A program made the translations under genes and the position numbers. From the NCBI GenBank assembly GCA_965231105.1, contig OZ246417.1, forward strand, positions 512,908 to 576,907: 64,000 nt of DNA, read 5' to 3'. Below the pieces are notes generated by a model, which did not search any database, was not told the origin of the DNA, and worked only from the letters and a program-made list of their open reading frames with translations. Positions 3,821-41,070 of the stretch are shown one piece after another; the first letter of the stretch is position 1, and every line of letters starts with the position of its first letter. Source of the DNA: an uncultured Candidatus Saccharibacteria bacterium. GTDB taxonomy: Bacteria > Patescibacteriota > Saccharimonadia > Saccharimonadales > JACDBH01.

Positions 3821-4750
3821 ATGAATACAACTGTATTAAGTAAAATCTCTGTTAACACTTTGTCTAATCTGACAAGCGTAAGAGGAGTGCTTGATCCTTT
3901 TTGTTCTTTCCTTCATCCATCAATCGTTGCTCTTTGGTATAACGATAAAAACCAGGCCCTCTATCTCCCAACGGATAGGTATGTACTAGGCAAGCTTTTC
4001 CCTATAAAAGAAGAGCCTTTTTGGTCCCTTGCATCTAAAACGCCTCTTGGTAGCCCTGATCTGGAAGAGGCCATAAAAACGATTCAAGAAACCGACAGAT
4101 CAGCAACATCAATAGAAGTAATACCCAAAAACTCTCTTGCTAATGCCTCAGGAAAACTGAATTCCCTAGAAGTGCAAGATGTAGATGAAAAGTTTTCAGA
4201 CTATATTTATGATCTAAAAATAACCACTGCCTGCCTTGGAGGGCAGTACGAGGATATGCGACGTCATGTACGTCGCTTTTTTAATTTATACGGCAAATAC
4301 ACCAAGCTAGAAATCTATGAAGGATGGGAGTATGTACGAAAGTACAAAAAACATGCCTACCATCTTTTTGAAGATTGGACACATTATTCAACCGAAGGTT
4401 CCAGAGACTATACGCAAGAGGAGCATGCATTTGATACTTTCTTCCAGAAGGATCTAAAGAATATCTTTGGCGATATCTACATCGTCATACTCAGGTACAA
4501 AAATAAAGTGGTCGCATACTCCATCAATGAAAAGATAGATAATTCTACTGTCATGAACCATTTTCATAAAGCAAACCTTAACCTCAGCAGCATAAGTCAC
4601 TACATGTTTTATTCGTGCTCAATGTTGCTAGCCCAAAAAGGTTTCCATTATTTGAACTTCCAGGAAGATTGCGGAATTGTAGGACTGCGAGCATTCAAAA
4701 AGAAAATGCGTCCCGCAACTCTTACCGAGCTCCTTAGCGTATCATTCTAA
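3821..4750 (+). CDS. DUF2156-like protein (similar to the phosphatidylglycerol lysyltransferase C-terminal domain; GNAT-like fold)
   Basis: 309 aa. The SDYIYDL..L.G..Y...RRHVRRF segment and the C-terminal GLRAFKKKMRP resemble the DUF2156/LPG_synthase_C pattern. This assignment is from memory of the family, not from a search. Confidence 0.5.
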   Translation: MNTTVLSKISVNTLSNLTSVRGVLDPFCSFLHPSIVALWYNDKNQALYLPTDRYVLGKLFPIKEEPFWSLASKTPLGSPDLEEAIKTIQETDRSATSIEVIPKNSLANASGKLNSLEVQDVDEKFSDYIYDLKITTACLGGQYEDMRRHVRRFFNLYGKYTKLEIYEGWEYVRKYKKHAYHLFEDWTHYSTEGSRDYTQEEHAFDTFFQKDLKNIFGDIYIVILRYKNKVVAYSINEKIDNSTVMNHFHKANLNLSSISHYMFYSCSMLLAQKGFHYLNFQEDCGIVGLRAFKKKMRPATLTELLSVSF

Positions 4751-5868
4751 GACTGAGCTTGCTGTTGCGAAAGATACGTAGCTTCGATTATTGTTTCTCG
4801 ACGCTGAAAACCAATCTTTGATAATGCCCTATTTATAACTTTAGGAGTATAGATAATTGACGCAGCGCTTGATTCGCAAAATACATATACAGTGTCGGCT
4901 TGAGTTCTGTAGAGTGTTTCCTGCCCTGCTAAAGCTACCGTCTTAGCGAACATTCCATAACCCTTAGCCTTCGAGGTGATAACGAGGGGAACCGCAAGCG
5001 CTTTATTAGAGGCATCATCGTTGAGGATTTGAGAAAATGCAGAGGGGTTTGCCCATGGCAATGTAGAAGTGTCTGGAACATCAGGGGAAAAAACCGCAAA
5101 CATTATAGCTTCACCAGTCTGACCATCAAAGCCGGCTACAGAGATAAAGTTTTCGTTATTAATTACCTCCCTCAATCCCTCTTCATGGAGCCCACCATAA
5201 TATCCCATTTGTGCTGCCTGCTCTGTAAATACCGATTCATGGAGTTTGATTAACTCTGGCAGTTTCTCGCGTATCTTTTCCTGGGATGTAGTAATTATAT
5301 GACCACCTTCTAAGATTACATCTACGGCAGGTGATGCTTTTAAATCATGGCAGTCGGCGGTGTCATACTCACTCAAAACGGTATATTCTGGAATACCATT
5401 TCCAATCAGCTCCTCGCCCTCAGGTAATCCCTGTACTAGTTCTTGGGTAATTTTTGCCGCCGATCCAGGAAGAGGGCGCATAACCAGTTCTTCTGCGAGT
5501 TCACCAGAAAGTAAGGTCTGCTTCGTAACTATAATTCCTTCTTTCTGCACGCCCATTTCATCAAGCAAACCCTCTGGCAGTATGGCAATCTGCTGCTGTG
5601 CTGCCACAACTTCTTCGTTAAAAGGGAATCCAAGTGTTTCGTTGGTAGCACTTATTGGTAACCGAGAAGATTCCTCTCCTGCCTCTTTAACCACGCGATC
5701 AAAAATATAAGGATCATCTATCCCGACTCGCATGAAACCGCTATACATATCGCACATGTTTCTATATTGCTCGAAACTTTTTGATGTTCCCGCGTCCAGC
5801 TCTACCATGTCCTGCTCTAGTGGCAGCGCATCCTCTGACTGATTGGGTTGCATTTCAACTTGAGTCAT
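4747..5868 (-). CDS. hypothetical protein, possibly with a GNAT-like C-terminal half
   Basis: A long intact 373-aa ORF with no clear motif. Its 3' end overlaps the convergent DUF2156-like gene by 4 nt. Confidence 0.6.
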   Translation of the reverse strand: MTQVEMQPNQSEDALPLEQDMVELDAGTSKSFEQYRNMCDMYSGFMRVGIDDPYIFDRVVKEAGEESSRLPISATNETLGFPFNEEVVAAQQQIAILPEGLLDEMGVQKEGIIVTKQTLLSGELAEELVMRPLPGSAAKITQELVQGLPEGEELIGNGIPEYTVLSEYDTADCHDLKASPAVDVILEGGHIITTSQEKIREKLPELIKLHESVFTEQAAQMGYYGGLHEEGLREVINNENFISVAGFDGQTGEAIMFAVFSPDVPDTSTLPWANPSAFSQILNDDASNKALAVPLVITSKAKGYGMFAKTVALAGQETLYRTQADTVYVFCESSAASIIYTPKVINRALSKIGFQRRETIIEATYLSQQQAQS

Positions 5869-5924
5869 TTGACGCTATATTATATATATTTTTTAGTTAT
5901 TTGTCAAGCTTAAGCATAAACTTA

Positions 5925-33163: not shown

Positions 33164-34684
33164 ATGACTACCACAAGCGAAAAAATAGGCAAGTTAATTT
33201 ATCAAGTACGACAAGAAAAAGGCCTAACACAGGCCGAATTTGCGAAACGTTTACAAACCTCACAGTCAGCCGTAAACCGCATCGAACATGGCAAACAGAA
33301 CTTAAGCATGGATATGCTTGGCCGTATTAGTGATGTTTTAAATAAGCAAATTATCAGTCTTAATACTGATGCTATTAATCTTCGTATTGAAGGCGGCCAT
33401 GAATTAAAGGGCGAAATCACACTGAAGCGCAGCAAGAATGCTGCCGTCGCATTATTATGTGCTTCACTTCTTAACTACGGTGTTACCCGCTTTAAAGCTT
33501 TCCCACGTATTGAAGAGGTTAACCGTATTATTGAGGTCCTGGAGAGCATTGGCGTAAAGGTACGTTGGTTACCGGGCAATGATCTTGAAATTCGTCGGCC
33601 TGCTGAGCTTAAACTCGATAGTATCAACGCGCATTCCGCTCGATTGACCCGAAGTGTACTTATGCTTCTTGGTCCACTGATGCACGACTACTCAAACTTC
33701 AAAATTCCCTATGCCGGCGGCTGTAAGTTAGGCACACGAACTGTAGCGCCTCACCTATTCGCACTGGAGCAATTCGGCATGGATGTCGTTGCCAAAACGG
33801 GTCACTATAACGTAACAGTTAATAAAAAGGCTGCAAATCATCTCATCCTTTATGAAGCCGGTAATACCGTTACCAATAATGTACTTATGGCAGCTGCACG
33901 AACTACTTCAGAAACAATCATTCAAGGTGCAAGCGCTGATTATATGGTGCAAGATTTATGTACGTTTCTTAAGCGTCTTGGCGTAAAGATAGAGGGAGTC
34001 GGCTCACCCGTACTGAAAGTAACGGGTGTACCAAAAATAAAAAAGAATATTACCTTTGCCCCTACTGAGGATCCGATTGAAGCGATGTTCTTTATTTCTG
34101 CGGCAGTCGCCACCAATTCACAGCTTACCATCCGCCGTGTGCCTATTTATTGGATTGGCCTAGAGCTCTTAAAACTTAAGAAGATGGGTCTTAACTATAA
34201 GACAAGTAAGTCTTATCCTGCCGATAACGGTATTACTGAACTCGCAGATATCACCATCTATAAGCATGATGGCAGCTTAAAAGCACTCAGTGAAAAACTC
34301 CATCCAAATCTATGGCCGGGTATTAACCCAGATAATATTCCCTATTTTGTACCAATTGCTGCTGTCGCTGCCGGACGCACACTGATTCACGACTGGATGT
34401 TTGAAAACCGTGCCATCTACTACACCGAAATGACTAAGATAGGCATGAATATTGAGCTTGCCGATCCACACCGTATTTATATTAATGGTCCAACTAAATT
34501 TAGCCGGGGAGATGTTGTTTGCCCCCCTGCCCTTCGCCCTGCAAGTTTGCTCCTTATTGGTATGCTTGGTGCCGAAGGTTCCTCTACCTTACGCAATGTC
34601 TATACCATTAATCGTGGTTATGAAGATCTTGCCGATCGCTTAAATAGCCTCGGCGCTCATATTACTGTCGTACACGAAGTTTAA
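33164..34684 (+). CDS. murA: UDP-N-acetylglucosamine 1-carboxyvinyltransferase fused to an N-terminal XRE-type HTH domain
   Basis: Residues 1-65 are an HTH (GLTQAEFAKRLQTSQSAVNRIEHGKQN). The remainder is the MurA/EPSP-synthase fold with the catalytic-Cys loop YAGGCKLGTRTV. Confidence 0.85.
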   Translation: MTTTSEKIGKLIYQVRQEKGLTQAEFAKRLQTSQSAVNRIEHGKQNLSMDMLGRISDVLNKQIISLNTDAINLRIEGGHELKGEITLKRSKNAAVALLCASLLNYGVTRFKAFPRIEEVNRIIEVLESIGVKVRWLPGNDLEIRRPAELKLDSINAHSARLTRSVLMLLGPLMHDYSNFKIPYAGGCKLGTRTVAPHLFALEQFGMDVVAKTGHYNVTVNKKAANHLILYEAGNTVTNNVLMAAARTTSETIIQGASADYMVQDLCTFLKRLGVKIEGVGSPVLKVTGVPKIKKNITFAPTEDPIEAMFFISAAVATNSQLTIRRVPIYWIGLELLKLKKMGLNYKTSKSYPADNGITELADITIYKHDGSLKALSEKLHPNLWPGINPDNIPYFVPIAAVAAGRTLIHDWMFENRAIYYTEMTKIGMNIELADPHRIYINGPTKFSRGDVVCPPALRPASLLLIGMLGAEGSSTLRNVYTINRGYEDLADRLNSLGAHITVVHEV

Positions 34685-35880
34685 GACTTAGAAACGTCTT
34701 GAAGTACGGCGTCAGTCAGCTGGTAGCGACGACCTTCAGTCGTCCAGCCCTTAACTTCTTGCTGGAATTTCTTCAGCAGCATGACCTCAAAGAAAGCCAT
34801 AACATAGATACCAATCTCAAGCCATCGAAGGAAATAGAAGTATGGCAAAGCACCTAAAAGATTCCAACGCTTAATCTTTGCTGAAGCTATGATAGCAATA
34901 AAGCCATTCAATATAACATCGGCGGCAATTGCTACTGGCAAAATCATCCAGTTACCGGTATATGCAATGACGAGTGGTATAAGAATAAATAACTGCAAGA
35001 AGAATACGATTGTTTGCGCCATTTGAAAGCCAAGACTGATATCAATTCGGTTTAGACCGCGACCGATCTTATACTTCTTTACGCCTTGGAAGAATCCACG
35101 TTGCCATCGCAAGTTTTGCTTGCAGAAATCTTTTAGCGTCTGTGGATCTTGCGTATAGTTAATTGCTCCAGGAATAAAGACAATTTTACCTAAGTTCTTA
35201 CGGTGCACCTGCAAGGTAATATCAAAGTCTTCAGTTAAACTGTTACCGGTAAATTCAAGCTGAGATAGAATATCTGTTCTAAAAGATGTAATAGGGCCAG
35301 GAAAAACAGAGATCATGTTTAGCCAAGACTGGACACGACGGGCAACATGCTGACTGTAGGTATAGGTTAATGCACGGTATGTACTAATCCAGTTACCACG
35401 CATGCTTTGCACAAAACCAACGGCAACTGCATATTTTTTAGAATTAAGCTTGCGCTTGTATACACGGAAATAATCCGGCGAAAAGATACTGTCTGCATCT
35501 GCAACATGGAGCCACTCGTACTGCTTCTCGATATCAAAATACTTAATGGCTTTTAAAACCGCTCCCGCTTTACCACTCCGCTCGACGGTCAGCACATTAT
35601 GTGCCCCCAATGATTCAATAGCGAGCTTTCGCGTATTATCGCTTGAGTTATCATCAACAACATAAATATCACGCTTAGGCTGACCTGCAGCGATAGCTGT
35701 CTGGATAGTAGTGGCAATGATGAGTTCTTCGTTATGACCAGGCAATAGTAAGGCCATCTTACGACGACGACCACGCTTTAAGGGACGCGCAGGAGGAACG
35801 TTACTTGCCAGCGCGGCACCGCCCAGTACGAGTTTTGTAAACTCAGAAGGCTGCTTCTTTTTTGATCGATTCTTCTTCAT
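34681..35880 (-). CDS. processive family-2 glycosyltransferase (PgaC/IcaA/NodC-like) with C-terminal TM helices
   Basis: Motifs VVDDNSSDNT, ADADS, LTEDFD and QNLRWQRG (QxxRW). Confidence 0.85.
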   Translation of the reverse strand: MKKNRSKKKQPSEFTKLVLGGAALASNVPPARPLKRGRRRKMALLLPGHNEELIIATTIQTAIAAGQPKRDIYVVDDNSSDNTRKLAIESLGAHNVLTVERSGKAGAVLKAIKYFDIEKQYEWLHVADADSIFSPDYFRVYKRKLNSKKYAVAVGFVQSMRGNWISTYRALTYTYSQHVARRVQSWLNMISVFPGPITSFRTDILSQLEFTGNSLTEDFDITLQVHRKNLGKIVFIPGAINYTQDPQTLKDFCKQNLRWQRGFFQGVKKYKIGRGLNRIDISLGFQMAQTIVFFLQLFILIPLVIAYTGNWMILPVAIAADVILNGFIAIIASAKIKRWNLLGALPYFYFLRWLEIGIYVMAFFEVMLLKKFQQEVKGWTTEGRRYQLTDAVLQDVSKS

Positions 35881-35992: not shown

Positions 35993-36574
35993 TTATTCGA
36001 CGCGAGCAAAATCAAAGAAATAGAGCTGGCGATTCTGCATCCAAGCCCCTGAGCAGGTCTGAATAGTAAGCTGTGGAACCCCTTGATATGCCAATATATC
36101 GACATTACTTGGATCAACTGTTTGTGTCTCGCGGTATATATAGGTAAATCGGTGCCCGTTATCAGTGGTTATAGTTACTTCTGATCCTACGGTTATTTTC
36201 TTTAAGCGCGCAAAAACTTCAGGACGGTAGTGACCATAGATAAAGGTATTGCCTTGCTTATTGTTCGGCTGCACTGTTGCAAGCGCATAGTGAGCTTTAT
36301 CCTTGGACAGTGACCACGTTTTTGAGGATTCGTTATAAATGCCATCTGCAATGGCAAGCTCGAGGTCTAGGCTTGGAACACTGAGATGAGTCGGCTTGCC
36401 GGTGATCAAGTCAGGTGCAGGCGGTAGTTCTGCCTGAATAGGAATCTCAATAACACTCGCCGCAGCTATTCTGTTTTGGTTCCAAAAATAGGCATACGGC
36501 AAGAGTGCGGCTAACCCTCCGAGGATGGCCACCGCTGAAATGATAAATAAAATCTTGTGTAAATGCTTCTTCAT
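35993..36574 (-). CDS. sortase family transpeptidase
   Basis: N-terminal anchor, His motif FIYGHY, catalytic TLxTC-like motif LTIQTCSG and a C-terminal Arg. Confidence 0.85.
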   Translation of the reverse strand: MKKHLHKILFIISAVAILGGLAALLPYAYFWNQNRIAAASVIEIPIQAELPPAPDLITGKPTHLSVPSLDLELAIADGIYNESSKTWSLSKDKAHYALATVQPNNKQGNTFIYGHYRPEVFARLKKITVGSEVTITTDNGHRFTYIYRETQTVDPSNVDILAYQGVPQLTIQTCSGAWMQNRQLYFFDFARVE

Positions 36575-36592
36575 AAATGGTCTTGGTGAAAC

Positions 36593-36622
36593 AAAAAAGC
36601 GACCCTTGCGAGCCGCCTTTTT
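36593..36622 (-). terminator. weak hairpin with U-run between the mini-LPXTG ORF and the sortase (possible partial terminator)
   Basis: 5-bp GC stem flanked by A6 and T5-6 runs, 20 nt upstream of the sortase ATG. Confidence 0.35.
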
Positions 36623-36658
36623 GTTTCGAGCGTAAGTGCTAAATAAGCCTAAAAAAGC

Positions 36659-36820
36659 TTATTTTGCTTCGCTGCGGCTCTTGCGAGCCAATACGGCGGT
36701 GATAACCATGATCACAACACCGCTGGCAATTAAGCTGACAGCTGCGATAAACAGCGGACGGCTATTGCCAGTTGCAGGAAGCACAGAAACGCCAGCTACT
36801 GTAGGAAGTTTTCCGTACAT
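36659..36820 (-). CDS. 53-aa micro-protein consisting essentially of an LPXTG sorting signal (LPATG + TM helix + basic tail)
   Basis: Not in the ORF track (<60 aa). My translation is MYGKLPTVAGVSVLPATGNSRPLFIAAVSLIASGVVIMVITAVLARKSRSEAK*. SD AAGGGAGG lies 7 nt upstream, and a consensus promoter lies further upstream. Confidence 0.7.
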   Translation of the reverse strand: MYGKLPTVAGVSVLPATGNSRPLFIAAVSLIASGVVIMVITAVLARKSRSEAK

Positions 36821-36890
36821 GCCTTTGGCCTCCCTTAACTTTACTGCTTAGAATCCCACGGGGTTACGCCCAGGTAACTCTTGGACGGTG

Positions 36891-36919
36891 ATTATATGTG
36901 TTTTATGACATTTTGTCAA
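36891..36919 (-). promoter_or_regulatory. perfect-consensus sigma70 promoter driving the mini-LPXTG ORF
   Basis: Minus strand: TTGACA (36919-36914)-N17-TATAAT (36896-36891). Confidence 0.7.
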
Positions 36920-36965: not shown

Positions 36966-36994
36966 TTGACATTTTTGTTAAATAGTTGTATCAT
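36966..36994 (+). promoter_or_regulatory. promoter of the carbohydrate-binding-repeat/CE4 gene
   Basis: TTGACA-N17-TATCAT, followed by SD AGGAG before the ATG at 37020. Confidence 0.6.
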
Positions 36995-37019: not shown

Positions 37020-39635
37020 ATGTTAAAGCGTTTGCGATTTTTGTTAGCAACCTTATTAGTATTCTTTAGTACTGTTATTGCTGCATTGCCTGCGGTTGCT
37101 GCACCAACTAATTTGATTGCAAACCCTTCTGTTGAAACAGTCGCAGCTGGCAATCCAAGCAACTGGACCGCTGATAAATGGGGCACCAATACCGCTGTTC
37201 TTACTCATGAAGTAACGGGCTATACCGGTACTCGCAGCTTACGCACAGAAGTAACAGCTTATACGAGCGGTGATGCAAAGTGGATTGCCGATGACATTAC
37301 CGTAACTCCTAGCACATCTTATACATACACAAGTTATTACAAATCAAATGTTGATACCGAAATTGACCTTCGTTATCAAGATGCTGCCGGTAACATTACC
37401 TATGCATACGCACAGTGGGTTCCTGCGAGTGTAGATTGGGCACCATTAACTGTTACGTTCACCACACCCGCAACAGCTACCAAGGTTGCCCCTTTGCACA
37501 TCATAGCTAAGACTGGTTGGCTTCAAACTGACGAATTTTCACTAAGTACAGCGGAAGCAGAACCAATTCCTACAGGCGATAATCTTATTGCCAATGCTTC
37601 ATTTGAAACCGCTGCCGGCCTAAAACCTGCTAAGTGGCTTACCAATAACTGGGGCGCTAATACCGCAAACTTTGTTTATGAAAATACTGGCCGTACTGGA
37701 AGCCATAGCGTAACGACTAATGTATCTGCTTTTACAACTGGTGATGCAAAATGGTATGCAGAGCCTGTAGCAGTAACTGCGGGCAATAACTACACTTATA
37801 CGGATTACTACAAGTCTACTATTGCTTCACGAGCAGTTGTTGCTTATATCAATGCAGCCGGTGTGTATAGCTTTGCCGAAATCGGTACCGCTCCTGCAAG
37901 TGCAGACTGGGCGCCATTCTCAACTGCATTTACTGCCCCTGCGGGCACCGTTCAGGTTTCCGTCTTTCATATTATTGAGCAAATTGGTAGCCTGAGCCTT
38001 GATGATGTGTCGCTTACAGAAACCGTCGTTACTCCTCCTACGGATGACGAAAACATCGTACCAAACCCATCACTCGAAAACCTAAATGGTGCACAGCCAG
38101 CAAACTGGGTTAATAACAACTGGGGTGTTAATACTTCAAGCTTTACATATGCTGCGACTGGTCGCACAGGAAATCGAAGCGTTACTACTACAACAACCGC
38201 CTATACAAATGGCGATGCAAAGTGGTACTTTCAGCCAGCAGATGTTGTCGCCAACAAGTTGTACGTATATAGGGACTACTACAAATCTACTATTGCTTCA
38301 CGTGTTGTTGCAGCTTTCAGCGACGCAGCCGGTGTTACGACCTATAAAGAAATTGGTGCAGTTGCCGCTAGCGCCGACTGGAAATTATTTGAAGCTTCCG
38401 TAACAATGCCCGCTACTGCAGTGAAGGCTACGGTATTTCATATTATTGAAGGCGTAGGTAGCCTGACCATTGATGATGTGCTTCTACAAGTTGCCGTGCC
38501 AGCCGGTGCTGACATTAGCGTACCGAATGGTTCACTCGAAAATGGCGTAACTACCCCTACTGGATGGAATGCCAGCAGCTGGGGTACAAACACTCCAACT
38601 TTCACATATATGAATGAAGGTCGCACCGGCACAAAGAGTATCCGTGTTTCGGTAAACAATTACACTGATGGTGATGCAAAATGGTTCTTTGACCCAATCA
38701 CTACCCTGACCCCTGGCCAGCAATACCGCTTTACTACCTGGTATAAAGGCACTGCCTTACCGCATGTTGTTGCGCTCTATATCATGGAAGACAACACCGA
38801 ACGCTACGTTGGCTTACCAAGCCCCCTTACTATAAATGCAACAGAGTGGCAAAAATATAGCGATACTTTCACCGTTCCTGAAGGAGCAAAGCAAGTTTCA
38901 CTATTCATGTATGTTGCAGGTAATGGCTGGCTACAAACCGACGACTACACCATAACCAGTTACCACCCAAGTGCTTTTAACCGTCCTCTTCTTACTCTTA
39001 CGTTTGATGATGGTCACGAGGATAATGCAACAACTGCGCTGCCACTACTCAATCAGTACGGCTTTAAGAGCACCCAATGTTATGCAACGAGCTTCATAGA
39101 AGGCCAGTCACAAGCAGTACGAGATGGTGTGCTTGCGTTCTTTAACTCTGGGCATGAAATCTGTTCTCACACCGTAACTCACCCATTCCTTACTACTCTT
39201 ACTAATCCAAATCTTACCTACGAACTCTCTCACTCTAAGACTTATCTTGAAAGCCTCATTGGCCAACCAGTACGTAATTTTGCTTCACCTTATGGTGACT
39301 ACAATGCTGCTGTTAACGACGTGATTGATAACTACTACCAGTCGCACCGTACCGTTGATGAAGGTTTTAACAGTAAGGATAATTTCAATATCTATCGTCT
39401 TCGTGTTCAGAACATTCTCGATACCACCACCGCTTCACAGGTTGCAGCATGGATCGAGCAAGCTCAAGCAGATAAAACATGGCTTATTTTGGTATACCAT
39501 CGCGTTGCCAATAACCCAGGTCCATACGATTCATATACGAACATCTTCGCAGAACATCTTCAGGCCATTGCCAATAGTGGCATTGTGGTGAAGACATACC
39601 AGGACGCCCTTACTGAAGTCCTGCCGCAGCTTTAA
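37020..39635 (+). CDS. secreted protein with four carbohydrate-binding-module-like repeats and a C-terminal CE4 polysaccharide deacetylase domain
   Basis: Signal peptide MLKRLRFLLATLLVFFSTVIAALPAVAA. NodB motifs TFDDGHEDN, HEICSHTVTHP and RNFASPYG. The ATG at 37020 is preferred over the track start at 36939. Confidence 0.85.
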   Translation: MLKRLRFLLATLLVFFSTVIAALPAVAAPTNLIANPSVETVAAGNPSNWTADKWGTNTAVLTHEVTGYTGTRSLRTEVTAYTSGDAKWIADDITVTPSTSYTYTSYYKSNVDTEIDLRYQDAAGNITYAYAQWVPASVDWAPLTVTFTTPATATKVAPLHIIAKTGWLQTDEFSLSTAEAEPIPTGDNLIANASFETAAGLKPAKWLTNNWGANTANFVYENTGRTGSHSVTTNVSAFTTGDAKWYAEPVAVTAGNNYTYTDYYKSTIASRAVVAYINAAGVYSFAEIGTAPASADWAPFSTAFTAPAGTVQVSVFHIIEQIGSLSLDDVSLTETVVTPPTDDENIVPNPSLENLNGAQPANWVNNNWGVNTSSFTYAATGRTGNRSVTTTTTAYTNGDAKWYFQPADVVANKLYVYRDYYKSTIASRVVAAFSDAAGVTTYKEIGAVAASADWKLFEASVTMPATAVKATVFHIIEGVGSLTIDDVLLQVAVPAGADISVPNGSLENGVTTPTGWNASSWGTNTPTFTYMNEGRTGTKSIRVSVNNYTDGDAKWFFDPITTLTPGQQYRFTTWYKGTALPHVVALYIMEDNTERYVGLPSPLTINATEWQKYSDTFTVPEGAKQVSLFMYVAGNGWLQTDDYTITSYHPSAFNRPLLTLTFDDGHEDNATTALPLLNQYGFKSTQCYATSFIEGQSQAVRDGVLAFFNSGHEICSHTVTHPFLTTLTNPNLTYELSHSKTYLESLIGQPVRNFASPYGDYNAAVNDVIDNYYQSHRTVDEGFNSKDNFNIYRLRVQNILDTTTASQVAAWIEQAQADKTWLILVYHRVANNPGPYDSYTNIFAEHLQAIANSGIVVKTYQDALTEVLPQL
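37110..38962 (+). repeat. four tandem ~155-aa domain repeats (CBM_4_9/galactose-binding-like) within the CE4 protein
   Basis: Repeat starts at 37110, 37581, 38052 and 38514 (periods of 471, 471 and 462 nt). Shared pattern: N-x-SxE...W....WG.NT..F.Y...GRTG..S....V.....GDAKW... Confidence 0.8.
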
Positions 39636-40949
39636 TTAGTCTGCACTATCGTAAAGCCATAGTGCGATATTGGCGGAGCGCAAGTCATTGACGAATGTCT
39701 TAAAGATACCCATGTTGGCTGAATTCTCTGCTTGGCCGGATGGCCAATACGACCAATCGATACCTTCGGCCGTATGAGCTTTGTCTTCTGCAAAAAGATG
39801 AACGGAAGTTGTAAAGCCTTGGCCCGATAAAGTACGGGCCTGAGCCACAACGCCATTTAAGATGTTCTGTCGCTGTTCGGGTGATAGAGTGTAGGGATTT
39901 GTGCGGCTCACTATTAACGACCGAGCAAAAGTACCAGTGTTCATCCAAACCTCCTGCACTCCTAATGCACGTGCAGCTTCAGCAGCAAGATCAACCCTAA
40001 GGAAACTTTTTGGGTCAAGCTGCGCAACATCAGCAGGAGAGGTAGGCGGCCATGCAAAGCCCTGGAGACCAAAACTATCGATAAGCCCTTTAGGGATAGG
40101 CTGAACATATGGCACGAAACTCTTATACGAACCGCCCGCCCAAGATGTACCTGAAGGGTACGTCATGCTTTGCAGTAATACAGCCGCCTTGCTCGTTGGA
40201 AAGTATTGTTTTTGTATTTGGACCACTTTGGTTATGCTACCGGCAAAATCATTTGGATCAGTATTGCCCCACACTGGAATATTTCCCTCAGGAATCGGCA
40301 CCCATACACCCATCTGTATATCGGTTATCCCTTGAGTTTTCAGAGTGGAAAAGTAAGTGCTTAAGGCAACGTCATAAGCTCCGGCCCCTAAATCTTTGAT
40401 AGGAACACCTGCTGGCTCAAAGAAAACCAAAGGAGCTACACCGGTTCGGGCAAACTCTTTTAAGACCGTTGCAACCCACTGTGCCTGAGAGGTAGCTTCG
40501 GCGGCACTACGGGGCATGGCAGCAAAGAATGAGACGCGAGAGGCAAGCCCTCCCTCACATACAGCCTCGTATTCTGCGAGCTTTTTTAGTTGCGCAATCG
40601 ATGAAGTATTCAGCCCTCCATGTCGCGGTGCGGTCACGCCACAGCCCAGGAGCCTCGTTTCAGTTGCAGTATTCGTTGAGGCAGCGGCCAAAACTTTTGG
40701 ATCGGGTTGCTTATTACCATCTGATGTTTCTCCTGACGGGGTTGGCAGGCGCGGCACGTCAGCTGCTTCTATATTCATTTCTTCCTGCACTGGAGCCTTA
40801 GGACCAGTAAGGCCATAGGCTTTATTAATGCGTAGCAAAATAATTGCACTCACAATTGCGCCTAACGAAAAGGTCGTTAAAAAAGCAATCGTCCATAAGA
40901 GACGGAGCTTTAGACTCATTTTGACCGGTTCTCGAAATTTGTACCCCAT
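39636..40949 (-). CDS. membrane-anchored extracellular protein, possibly a TIM-barrel glycoside hydrolase
   Basis: 437-440 aa with an N-terminal TM helix. The start is ambiguous (40958, 40949 or 40919). The hydrolase guess rests only on general sequence character and on gene context. Confidence 0.6.
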   Translation of the reverse strand: MGYKFREPVKMSLKLRLLWTIAFLTTFSLGAIVSAIILLRINKAYGLTGPKAPVQEEMNIEAADVPRLPTPSGETSDGNKQPDPKVLAAASTNTATETRLLGCGVTAPRHGGLNTSSIAQLKKLAEYEAVCEGGLASRVSFFAAMPRSAAEATSQAQWVATVLKEFARTGVAPLVFFEPAGVPIKDLGAGAYDVALSTYFSTLKTQGITDIQMGVWVPIPEGNIPVWGNTDPNDFAGSITKVVQIQKQYFPTSKAAVLLQSMTYPSGTSWAGGSYKSFVPYVQPIPKGLIDSFGLQGFAWPPTSPADVAQLDPKSFLRVDLAAEAARALGVQEVWMNTGTFARSLIVSRTNPYTLSPEQRQNILNGVVAQARTLSGQGFTTSVHLFAEDKAHTAEGIDWSYWPSGQAENSANMGIFKTFVNDLRSANIALWLYDSAD

Positions 40950-41070
40950 CCTGCTCATAATTATAGCGATTAAGACAGTCTATTGCATTCCTCGCAATCA
41001 CATTATACAACGATGTTGATTTTATAGTTTCTGCCGTTCTTATCTGTTATAATCTCATATGTCTTTCCGT

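Follow-up and report, generated by a model that had tools for sequence, protein, structure and literature searches.

An uncultured Candidatus Saccharibacteria bacterium carries, directly upstream of a sortase gene, a gene for a 53-residue protein that is little more than a sortase sorting signal. The gene, referred to below as the mini-gene, lies on the minus strand at 36659-36820 (stop codon included) of the window studied here, a 64,000-nucleotide (nt) stretch of contig OZ246417.1. It is a real, strongly conserved gene, and its counterparts stand beside the sortase in most of the related loci examined. We favor, with moderate confidence, the reading that it encodes an abundant membrane mini-protein that would serve as a minimal sortase substrate, inserted with its N-terminus outside (N-out) and cut by the adjacent sortase.

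The Saccharibacteria are ultrasmall epibionts whose surface decides their attachment to, and feeding on, host bacteria, and the chemistry of that surface is little known. If the mini-protein is processed as proposed, the wall would carry, or the cell would release, large amounts of a short, defined peptide, and cross-linking, hydrophobicity, or signaling would be affected. It would then follow, moreover, that a sortase substrate can do without both signal peptide and passenger domain. An early TM7 genome paper records the presence of sortases and predicted sorted proteins and no more. Our search of the literature on sortases and LPXTG proteins in Saccharibacteria, TM7, and Patescibacteria returned passing mentions only, and a search on LPXTG proteins that are small or lack a signal peptide brought up no account of this mini-protein family.

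A protein reduced to its sorting signal

The protein encoded by 36659-36820 (minus strand) reads MYGKLPTVAGVSVLPATGNSRPLFIAAVSLIASGVVIMVITAVLARKSRSEAK. It opens with a short head (residues 1-13, MYGKLPTVAGVSV; 36782-36820), followed by the LPATG sortase motif (residues 14-18; 36767-36781), by a spacer and transmembrane segment with a conserved Gly34 (residues 19-45, NSRPLFIAAVSLIASGVVIMVITAVLA; 36686-36766), and by a basic tail (residues 46-53, RKSRSEAK; 36662-36685) that the positive-inside rule places, by prediction, in the cytoplasm. The predicted cut falls after Thr17 and would leave a 17-residue product made up of the head and LPAT, in agreement with the cleavage product proposed in the earlier note on this DNA. 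There is no in-frame start codon further upstream, so that an N-terminal signal peptide is impossible. The description of the ORF (open reading frame) in that note as a complete LPXTG signal with a near-zero passenger and no signal peptide is thus accurate as to the sequence, and the comparative data presented below lie far beyond what chance would produce. In the AlphaFold model, the head is flexible (predicted local distance difference test, pLDDT, 55-68), LPATG is unstructured, and a single helix spans residues 21-52 (pLDDT 88-94).

Generic models of the sorting signal come close to recognizing the mini-protein. It scores 19.2 bits against the Pfam LPXTG anchor PF00746 (cut-off 20) and 15.4 bits against TIGR01167 (cut-off 15.9); 27 of 40 family members match the former, and 25 of 40 the latter, at E <= 0.1, and at least one member, at 18.5 bits, lies above an anchor-model cut-off. 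The three GenBank homologues that we checked are all titled "hypothetical protein," although entries at JGI sometimes read "LPXTG-motif cell wall-anchored protein." If the mini-protein is processed as proposed, searches for sortase substrates should be widened, since the anchor models place the family just below their cut-offs and the GenBank homologues checked pass as hypothetical. The earlier note called the ORF unannotated, which holds for the ORF track on which it was based; elsewhere gene callers do predict the ORF, and the exact protein is present in public collections. As that note also stated, the mini-protein is the only LPXTG protein in the window: a loose pattern for C-terminal sorting signals returned no second candidate in these 64 kb, the part of the roughly 0.9 Mb genome that the census covered. 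An antisense ORF at 36636-36851 was considered and rejected as a competing gene. It is not conserved, any one antisense frame being fully open across the gene in at most 11 of 72 loci.

A widespread family at a fixed position

The relatives of the window's sortase are annotated as Candidatus Saccharibacteria or Saccharimonadales, and a first search already returned nine proteins of 52-76 amino acids that are 71-87% identical to the mini-protein. With an alignment of the sortase as the query, we then fetched 80 species-level Saccharibacteria loci from species-representative genomes. In 71 of them the sortase is immediately preceded, on its own strand, by a homologue of 51-70 amino acids (median 58). 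The other nine comprise two variants, four long LPXTG proteins, two loci cut at the contig end, and one locus with no such gene; one variant carries LPNTH (L024) and the other an apparent GTG start (L074). The conserved micro-ORF beside the sortase, with purifying selection on its LPATG motif, that the earlier note suggested looking for is found: it recurs in these 71 of 80 loci, and the proline, threonine, and glycine of the motif are each kept in 74 of 74 distinct family sequences.

The four divergent loci (L051, L075, L077, and L079) carry, in the same slot, an ordinary LPXTG protein of 174-196 amino acids with a signal peptide, the C-terminus of which scores 12-20 bits against a profile of the mini-family. 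The mini-gene thus stands where a conventional substrate gene would, and it probably derives from such a gene. These longer proteins carry an NTGPGS-type motif (positions about 2390-2990 of their loci and upstream). A very large ORF of about 675-730 codons lies just upstream in two of the loci (L075 and L079) and bears the same type of motif in repeated blocks.

Wider searches bear out the size of the protein. When 5.8 billion clustered proteins were searched with a profile, 542 clusters at 90% identity were found; the members of the 120 clusters listed are nearly all 53-60 amino acids long (up to 91) and contain no Pfam domain. Among 1.84 billion representatives, clustered at 50% identity, HMMER in an exhaustive search gave 247 matches, and the best 150 of these are all 48-139 amino acids long and nearly all aligned over almost the whole profile. 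Short matches over the full profile indicate a distinct family of small proteins, as opposed to the C-termini of large surface proteins.

Selection on the protein and on its codons

Purifying selection acts on the amino-acid sequence of the mini-protein. Of 11 independent close locus pairs, 10 give a ratio of nonsynonymous to synonymous divergence (dN/dS) of 0.01-0.39, and the exception, 0.69, comes from only 11 differences. Within the group of close relatives of the window, identity is 82% in the coding sequence, compared with 46% in the 5′ untranslated region (5′ UTR) and 41% in the 3′ gap, and at codon positions 1, 2, and 3 it is 87, 91, and 70%. The mini-protein is in fact better conserved than its sortase, as judged by nonsynonymous divergence per site (pN) across GTDB locus pairs (0-0.15 for the mini-protein, 0.07-0.28 for the sortase).

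These data bear directly on the idea that the ORF arose by chance or is what decay has left of a once full-length gene for an LPXTG surface protein. The 174-196 amino-acid LPXTG protein found at the same position in four divergent lineages does suggest that a passenger was lost. A gene in decay, however, would hardly keep its frame, start, Shine-Dalgarno site, promoter, and motif across 71 species-level loci, or hold dN/dS well below 1 and pN below that of the sortase. With conservation, dN/dS, Shine-Dalgarno site, and promoter all against it, we regard this explanation as scarcely credible and have ruled it out.

Synonymous sites are restrained as well. In the same genome pairs, synonymous divergence per site is 0.06-0.46 for the mini-gene and 0.57-0.91 for the sortase, and that of the neighboring glycosyltransferase gene among the window's close relatives is 0.77-0.86. 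Horizontal transfer or gene conversion was rejected as the cause, given that flanks only 41-46% identical border a coding sequence that is 82% identical and shows codon periodicity. The codon usage described in the next section points instead to translational selection. The low synonymous divergence owes part of its extent to this codon bias, and a constraint at the RNA level may act in addition. Two smaller observations concern the same sites: in one locus pair (L036 and L038) the synonymous divergence is 0.06 for the mini-gene and 0.81 for the sortase, and invariant runs of up to 21 nt occur among five relatives, inside a 23-nt stretch with one substitution.

Signals of high expression

The mini-gene is preceded by a sigma-70-type promoter, TTGACA-N17-TATAAT (36891-36919, minus strand), that matches the consensus at 12 of 12 positions. 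With the transcription start placed from the −10 box, the predicted 5′ UTR is about 64 nt long (36821-36884, minus strand) and contains a Shine-Dalgarno site, AAGGGAGG (36829-36836, minus strand), 8 nt 5′ of the ATG. Both elements recur among the relatives. A GGAG/GAGG-type site precedes the ATG of every related mini-ORF, and 60 of 76 related loci have a promoter matching at 10 or more of 12 positions, usually of the form TTTACA-N16/17-(TG)TATAAT and mostly 60-110 nt before the ATG.

The earlier note rated these expression signals as the best in the window. The perfect promoter stands, although it is shared with one other site: the 64 kb contain two perfect TTGACA-N17-TATAAT matches, at 36919-36891 and at 5907-5879, both on the minus strand. 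The second (5879-5907) lies upstream of an ORF for 373 amino acids without a Pfam match (4747-5868, minus strand), which is possibly another highly expressed protein.

Codon usage adds to this picture. Pooled over the loci, the mini-gene and the sortase use GCG at 0.09 vs 0.19, ACG at 0.09 vs 0.21, ATA at 0.06 vs 0.24, and AAC at 0.83 vs 0.49. The avoidance of NNG, ATA, and AGR codons and the preference for AAC form the pattern expected of a highly expressed gene. The mini-gene appears, therefore, to be expressed at a high level, one of the highest in the region.

Downstream, two hairpins separate the mini-gene from the sortase on the minus strand. The first (36641-36664) overlaps the stop codon, and the second (36588-36627) resembles an intrinsic terminator, with an 18-bp stem, a GCAA loop, and a U-run. 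The hairpin described in the earlier note as weak is in truth strong: the 91 nt of 36575-36665 fold at −37.1 kcal/mol (z = −8.1), and none of 200 shuffled sequences is as stable. The gap between the two genes is 84 nt in the window and 56-124 nt in most loci, and in 59 of 76 loci it holds a hairpin of −8 kcal/mol or lower with a T-run, the structure recurring while the sequences differ. Such a recurrent terminator-like element fits the excess of substrate over enzyme that the earlier note had predicted. A search of the minus strand between the mini-ORF and the sortase gave no promoter-like site, for which reason the sortase is probably transcribed by read-through from the mini-gene.

The position of the ORF ahead of the sortase, and the terminator-like hairpin found in most loci between the two genes (gap 56-124 nt), would also suit a translated leader, an upstream ORF that serves solely to regulate sortase transcription by way of the terminator. 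Selection, however, preserves the amino-acid sequence as a full sorting signal, and the codon usage is of the high-expression type. The minimum-free-energy fold consists of two independent hairpins with no anti-terminator pairing, and in one locus the gene persists with no sortase downstream (L087, discussed below). A leader is thus a highly improbable account of the ORF. No known RNA family was detected near the mini-gene; at Rfam gathering thresholds, the whole window yields six tRNAs only.

Conserved residues of the mini-protein

The pattern of conservation over the 74 distinct family sequences shows which parts of the mini-protein are held fixed. Within LPxTG, whose proline, threonine, and glycine never vary, the leucine is kept in 71 sequences and the X position is Asn in 38 and Ala in 14 and varies in the remainder. 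Downstream of the cleavage site, the consensus is (G/N/S)(N/S)R(P/L)LF, and a glycine in mid-membrane, at +20 from the motif, is present in 72 of 74. The tail carries a net charge of +1 to +5 in all 74. The heads, by comparison, are 11-28 residues long (median 17), rich in Gly, Ala, Val, and Thr, and nearly uncharged (−1 to +1); 59 of 74 begin with Met-Tyr.

This pattern runs counter to the pilin-like, Lys-based head-to-tail polymerization that the earlier note had entertained. That idea rested on Lys4 as the nucleophile and on a second LPT-like motif in the head, KLPTVAG. Lysine occurs anywhere in the head in only 31 of 74 sequences and at no fixed position, KLPTVAG is found in the window's close relatives alone (most other members have VLG(A/T) there), and the mini-protein has no passenger or Ig-like (CnaB/CnaA) domain.

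The head may instead preserve a trace of its own history. Three loci (L020, L029, and L037; about 2750-2950) carry two tandem sortase motifs, for example LLPATGAAVLMPKTG and MYNSTKGLLPATGAAVLMPKTGAF, and the head contains a pseudo-motif, LP(T/S)xxG, in the window's clade and reads VLGAxxxATG in most others. Taken together, the tandem motifs and these head sequences suggest that the head may be a decayed duplicate of the sortase motif.

The adjacent sortase

The sortase gene (35993-36574, minus strand) encodes 193 amino acids with an N-terminal membrane anchor and matches PF04203 (E 6e-19). His115, Cys174 (in QTCSG), and Arg182 are invariant among 19 sortase relatives, whose alignment also reveals a near-invariant Gly20 and Pro26 in the anchor. 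Its class could not be assigned by sequence. None of the NCBIfam models for sortase classes A-F reaches its cut-off, the best being class D (42 bits against cut-offs of 140-165), with class E at 32.5 against 160, and the best solved match by sequence is a class C chain at E 2.5e-7, remote as the enzyme is from all solved sortases. The AlphaFold model (pLDDT 84) is nearest to the class E SrtE1 of Streptomyces coelicolor and the class A SrtA of Streptococcus pyogenes (E about 1e-9), with class C close behind. The closeness of the model to classes E and A makes the sortase look like a housekeeping enzyme, and "housekeeping-like" is as much as structure gives. A pilus-type sortase, as the polymerization idea would call for, is not indicated: the model is not clearly nearest to class C, and the protein has 193 residues and an N-terminal anchor only.

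Many of the relatives have an A-x-A-like stretch after the anchor (ALAQA, VAVAQN, AHAQP; in the window RIAAAS, at residues about 33-40, 36455-36478, minus strand). It resembles a signal-peptidase site, like the one protected by SafA in Actinomyces SrtA.

SafA, a protein of about 52 amino acids, is a signal-peptidase antagonist that shields an actinobacterial housekeeping sortase and is not a substrate (PMC9282373). Like the mini-protein, it has a single transmembrane helix, is coupled to a housekeeping-type sortase, and is conserved across a large clade (PMC9282373). It is therefore worth weighing whether the mini-protein could be a SafA analogue, a partner or pseudo-substrate whose helix binds the sortase while its LPXTG motif fills the active site, so that the enzyme is stabilized, localized, or throttled. 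The unusually conserved membrane segment of the mini-protein would suit such a role, the near-invariant Gly20 and Pro26 of the sortase anchor mean that glycines in both helices keep an interaction plausible, and the stretch after the anchor could be the site in need of shielding. SafA, however, is encoded downstream of its sortase, lies N-in/C-out, and carries an FPW motif and no LPXTG, whereas the mini-gene is upstream and its product has the opposite predicted topology. Homology was rejected, as FPW occurs in no member of the mini-family and no sequence relationship was seen. Moreover, the expression signals, codon bias, and terminator imply a large molar excess, needless for a 1:1 partner, and an invariant, cleavable LPXTG would destroy the partner at each binding. 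We therefore judge a partner role unlikely. The decoy or regulatory function that the earlier note raised, with the mini-protein as a modulator of the sortase, is possible.

A proposed minimal sortase substrate

The favored reading, in which the mini-protein is a minimal substrate of its sortase, can be set out as a sequence of steps. The near-consensus promoter and strong ribosome-binding site would yield a short transcript, most copies of which would stop at the hairpin and so not extend into the sortase gene; the sortase would come from occasional read-through, leaving substrate far above enzyme. The basic tail and the short, near-uncharged head predict insertion in the N-out/C-in orientation: without a signal peptide, the head would cross the membrane, the helix would span it, and the tail would stay inside. 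The LPXTG motif would thereby come to lie at the outer face of the membrane, where the anchored sortase would cut between Thr and Gly and form a thioester with the head, a 17-residue acyl-enzyme. The head would most likely pass to an amine of a peptidoglycan precursor, and the wall would then bear many short, hydrophobic peptides rich in Gly, Ala, Val, and Thr. As to what such peptides might do, one may speculate that they affect surface hydrophobicity, cap the acceptors of cross-links, or serve, after hydrolysis, as a signal.

Enzyme and substrate fit in shape, with a tripartite signal on the one side and a sortase with His-Cys-Arg and a housekeeping-like fold on the other. FemAB-type cross-bridge enzymes are present and essential in a cultured Saccharibacterium (PMC10633639 Table S1), which makes the usual amine acceptor plausible.

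Several observations weigh against this proposal. Canonical sortase substrates carry a signal peptide and a passenger domain, and the mini-protein has neither. One mini-gene, 87% identical to that of the window, occurs with no sortase downstream (L087, NCBI GCA_043755515.1; mini-gene 324-482), followed instead by a gene for a GT4 glycosyltransferase (558-1835). In Southlakia epibionticum, the 199-amino-acid sortase annotated as class E has 56 nt upstream, which leaves no room for a mini-gene, though this enzyme may not be the orthologue of the window's sortase (PMC10633639), and transposon insertions in it rise over passages (PMC10633639 Table S1). A generic anchor would not require the degree of conservation seen in the membrane span and just after the cleavage site, and this hints that the membrane-embedded part has a function of its own. 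Finally, we infer the transcription, translation, topology, and cleavage of the mini-protein from sequence.

The strong conservation after the cleavage site and inside the membrane would also fit products other than a wall-linked, monomeric head. The retained C-terminal fragment could be a membrane subunit or a signal, or the heads could be joined to one another or cyclized. In Streptococcus gordonii, a membrane two-component system reportedly senses cleaved LPXTG C-terminal peptides, and the synthase-like family 2 glycosyltransferase (GT2) encoded next to the sortase could need a small membrane partner. The conserved N-terminal Met-Tyr-Gly/Gln (Tyr in 59 of 74) would point to a use for the N-terminus, and a polymer that forms sheets would be in keeping with heads rich in Gly, Ala, Val, and Thr. 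Yet no Lys nucleophile is conserved in the head (Lys in 31 of 74), and its N-terminus is not uniform, in that proteins beginning MS-, MT-, MA-, or MG- would lose their Met and those beginning MY- would keep it. The sortase is nearest to housekeeping enzymes and not to the polymerizing class C, and the type and orientation of the GT2 gene vary by clade while the mini-protein persists. On balance, we consider a product of either kind quite improbable.

Narrower still is the proposal that the mini-protein is a building block and not a protein for display, the sortase joining heads end to end through the N-terminal amine, or cyclizing the head, and so turning a gene of 160 bp into a wall-anchored repeat polymer or a cyclic peptide. 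Sortases are able to cyclize or oligomerize peptides in vitro, but we know of no natural linear homopolymer or cyclic peptide made by a sortase. The proposal strikes us as very improbable; were it true, it would give a 0.9 Mb genome a very economical surface coat or signal.

Relation to known systems

One close comparison for the proposed substrate is with the canonical LPXTG proteins of the class A and class E pathways. They have the same tripartite signal, and here as there it is paired with a sortase that has His-Cys-Arg and a housekeeping-like fold. The mini-protein differs in its lack of signal peptide and passenger, its head of 11-28 residues, its conserved span, and its signs of very high expression. 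Class C pilins depend on a pilin-motif Lys and Ig-like domains; the mini-protein has no passenger and no fixed Lys.

The Pf3 phage coat protein is a small, single-span protein without a signal peptide, whose N-tail is translocated and whose basic C-terminus stays inside. It offers a model for insertion of the mini-protein, with an assumed dependence on YidC; the Pf3 coat itself is a virion protein and has no sortase motif.

Dedicated pairs of one sorting enzyme and one adjacent target, for example JDVT-CTERM (bioRxiv 10.1101/2023.06.07.544157), share with the present system their co-occurrence in consecutive genes, and the regular adjacency of sortase and target gene is observed here. The targets in such pairs are normally full-size, however, and two sortases, together with further LPXTG-like proteins, occur in at least one Saccharibacterium. 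In the transposon-sequencing data for Southlakia epibionticum, two sortases appear with no mini-gene listed beside them; the larger, of 448 amino acids, is scored as growth-deficient and then essential, and lies near a PKD/LPXTG-like protein (PMC10633639 Table S1).

Braun lipoprotein (Lpp) and the hydrophobic proteins that sortases anchor in actinomycetes (chaplins and SrtE-dependent proteins, PMC13251363) are small, abundant, wall-linked or surface-coating proteins that alter the envelope, and any functional resemblance to them is speculative. Lpp is attached by a different chemistry, and chaplins have far larger folded domains with signal peptides. Curated precedents for tiny or tandem-motif proteins exist in NF058583 ("LAXTG motif-containing small protein") and NF033073 ("doubled motif LPXTG anchor"). 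The window protein does not match the former at E <= 0.1, although 2 of 40 members do so weakly, and it scores 16.6 bits against the latter, for which the cut-off is 48. We would describe the family as a substrate-like sortase/LPXTG protein that consists of little but a sorting signal, has no signal peptide, appears to be highly expressed, and is kept in most Saccharibacteria loci examined.

Neighboring genes

The mini-gene and its sortase are embedded in a recurrent set of envelope genes. In many loci the order comprises a divergent CE4 deacetylase with carbohydrate-binding repeats, the mini-gene, the sortase, a GT2, and a MurA fused to a helix-turn-helix (HTH) domain. The window's GT2 (34681-35880, minus strand; Pfam and NCBIfam) is PgaC/IcaA/NodC-like, and a GT2 gene adjoins the sortase in 64 loci, among them the window's own contig (L001). 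Only the window's clade (close relatives L082, L084, and L085) has it on the strand of the sortase. In most other loci (L002-L021 and others), an orthologue of 57-77% identity is convergent, which indicates an inversion in the window's clade. Another clade has a different GT2, 21-27% identical, 3′ of the sortase. Because type and strand vary in this way, we take the envelope genes to be conserved neighbors and not proven partners.

On the other side, the divergent gene at 37020-39635 (plus strand) encodes a secreted protein with carbohydrate-binding repeats (PF02018) and a CE4 deacetylase domain (PF01522), and relatives of it lie upstream in 60 loci, including L001. Its listed start, 36939, is 5′ of its own promoter (36966-36994, an 11/12 match). 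This promoter and the signal-peptide-like sequence MLKRLRFLLATLLVFFSTVIAALPAVAAP (MLKRLRFLL...) make the Met at 37020 the likely true start.

Two further genes complete the neighborhood. The MurA (UDP-GlcNAc 1-carboxyvinyltransferase; 33164-34684, plus strand) has an N-terminal XRE-type HTH (PF01381, residues 12-62), a fusion that is kept at 60-77% identity in 36 related loci. Beyond the CE4 gene, in the window and in at least eight related loci, lies a gene for a 440-amino-acid protein (39636-40958, minus strand) that has a membrane segment at its N-terminus and matches no model in Pfam or NCBIfam.

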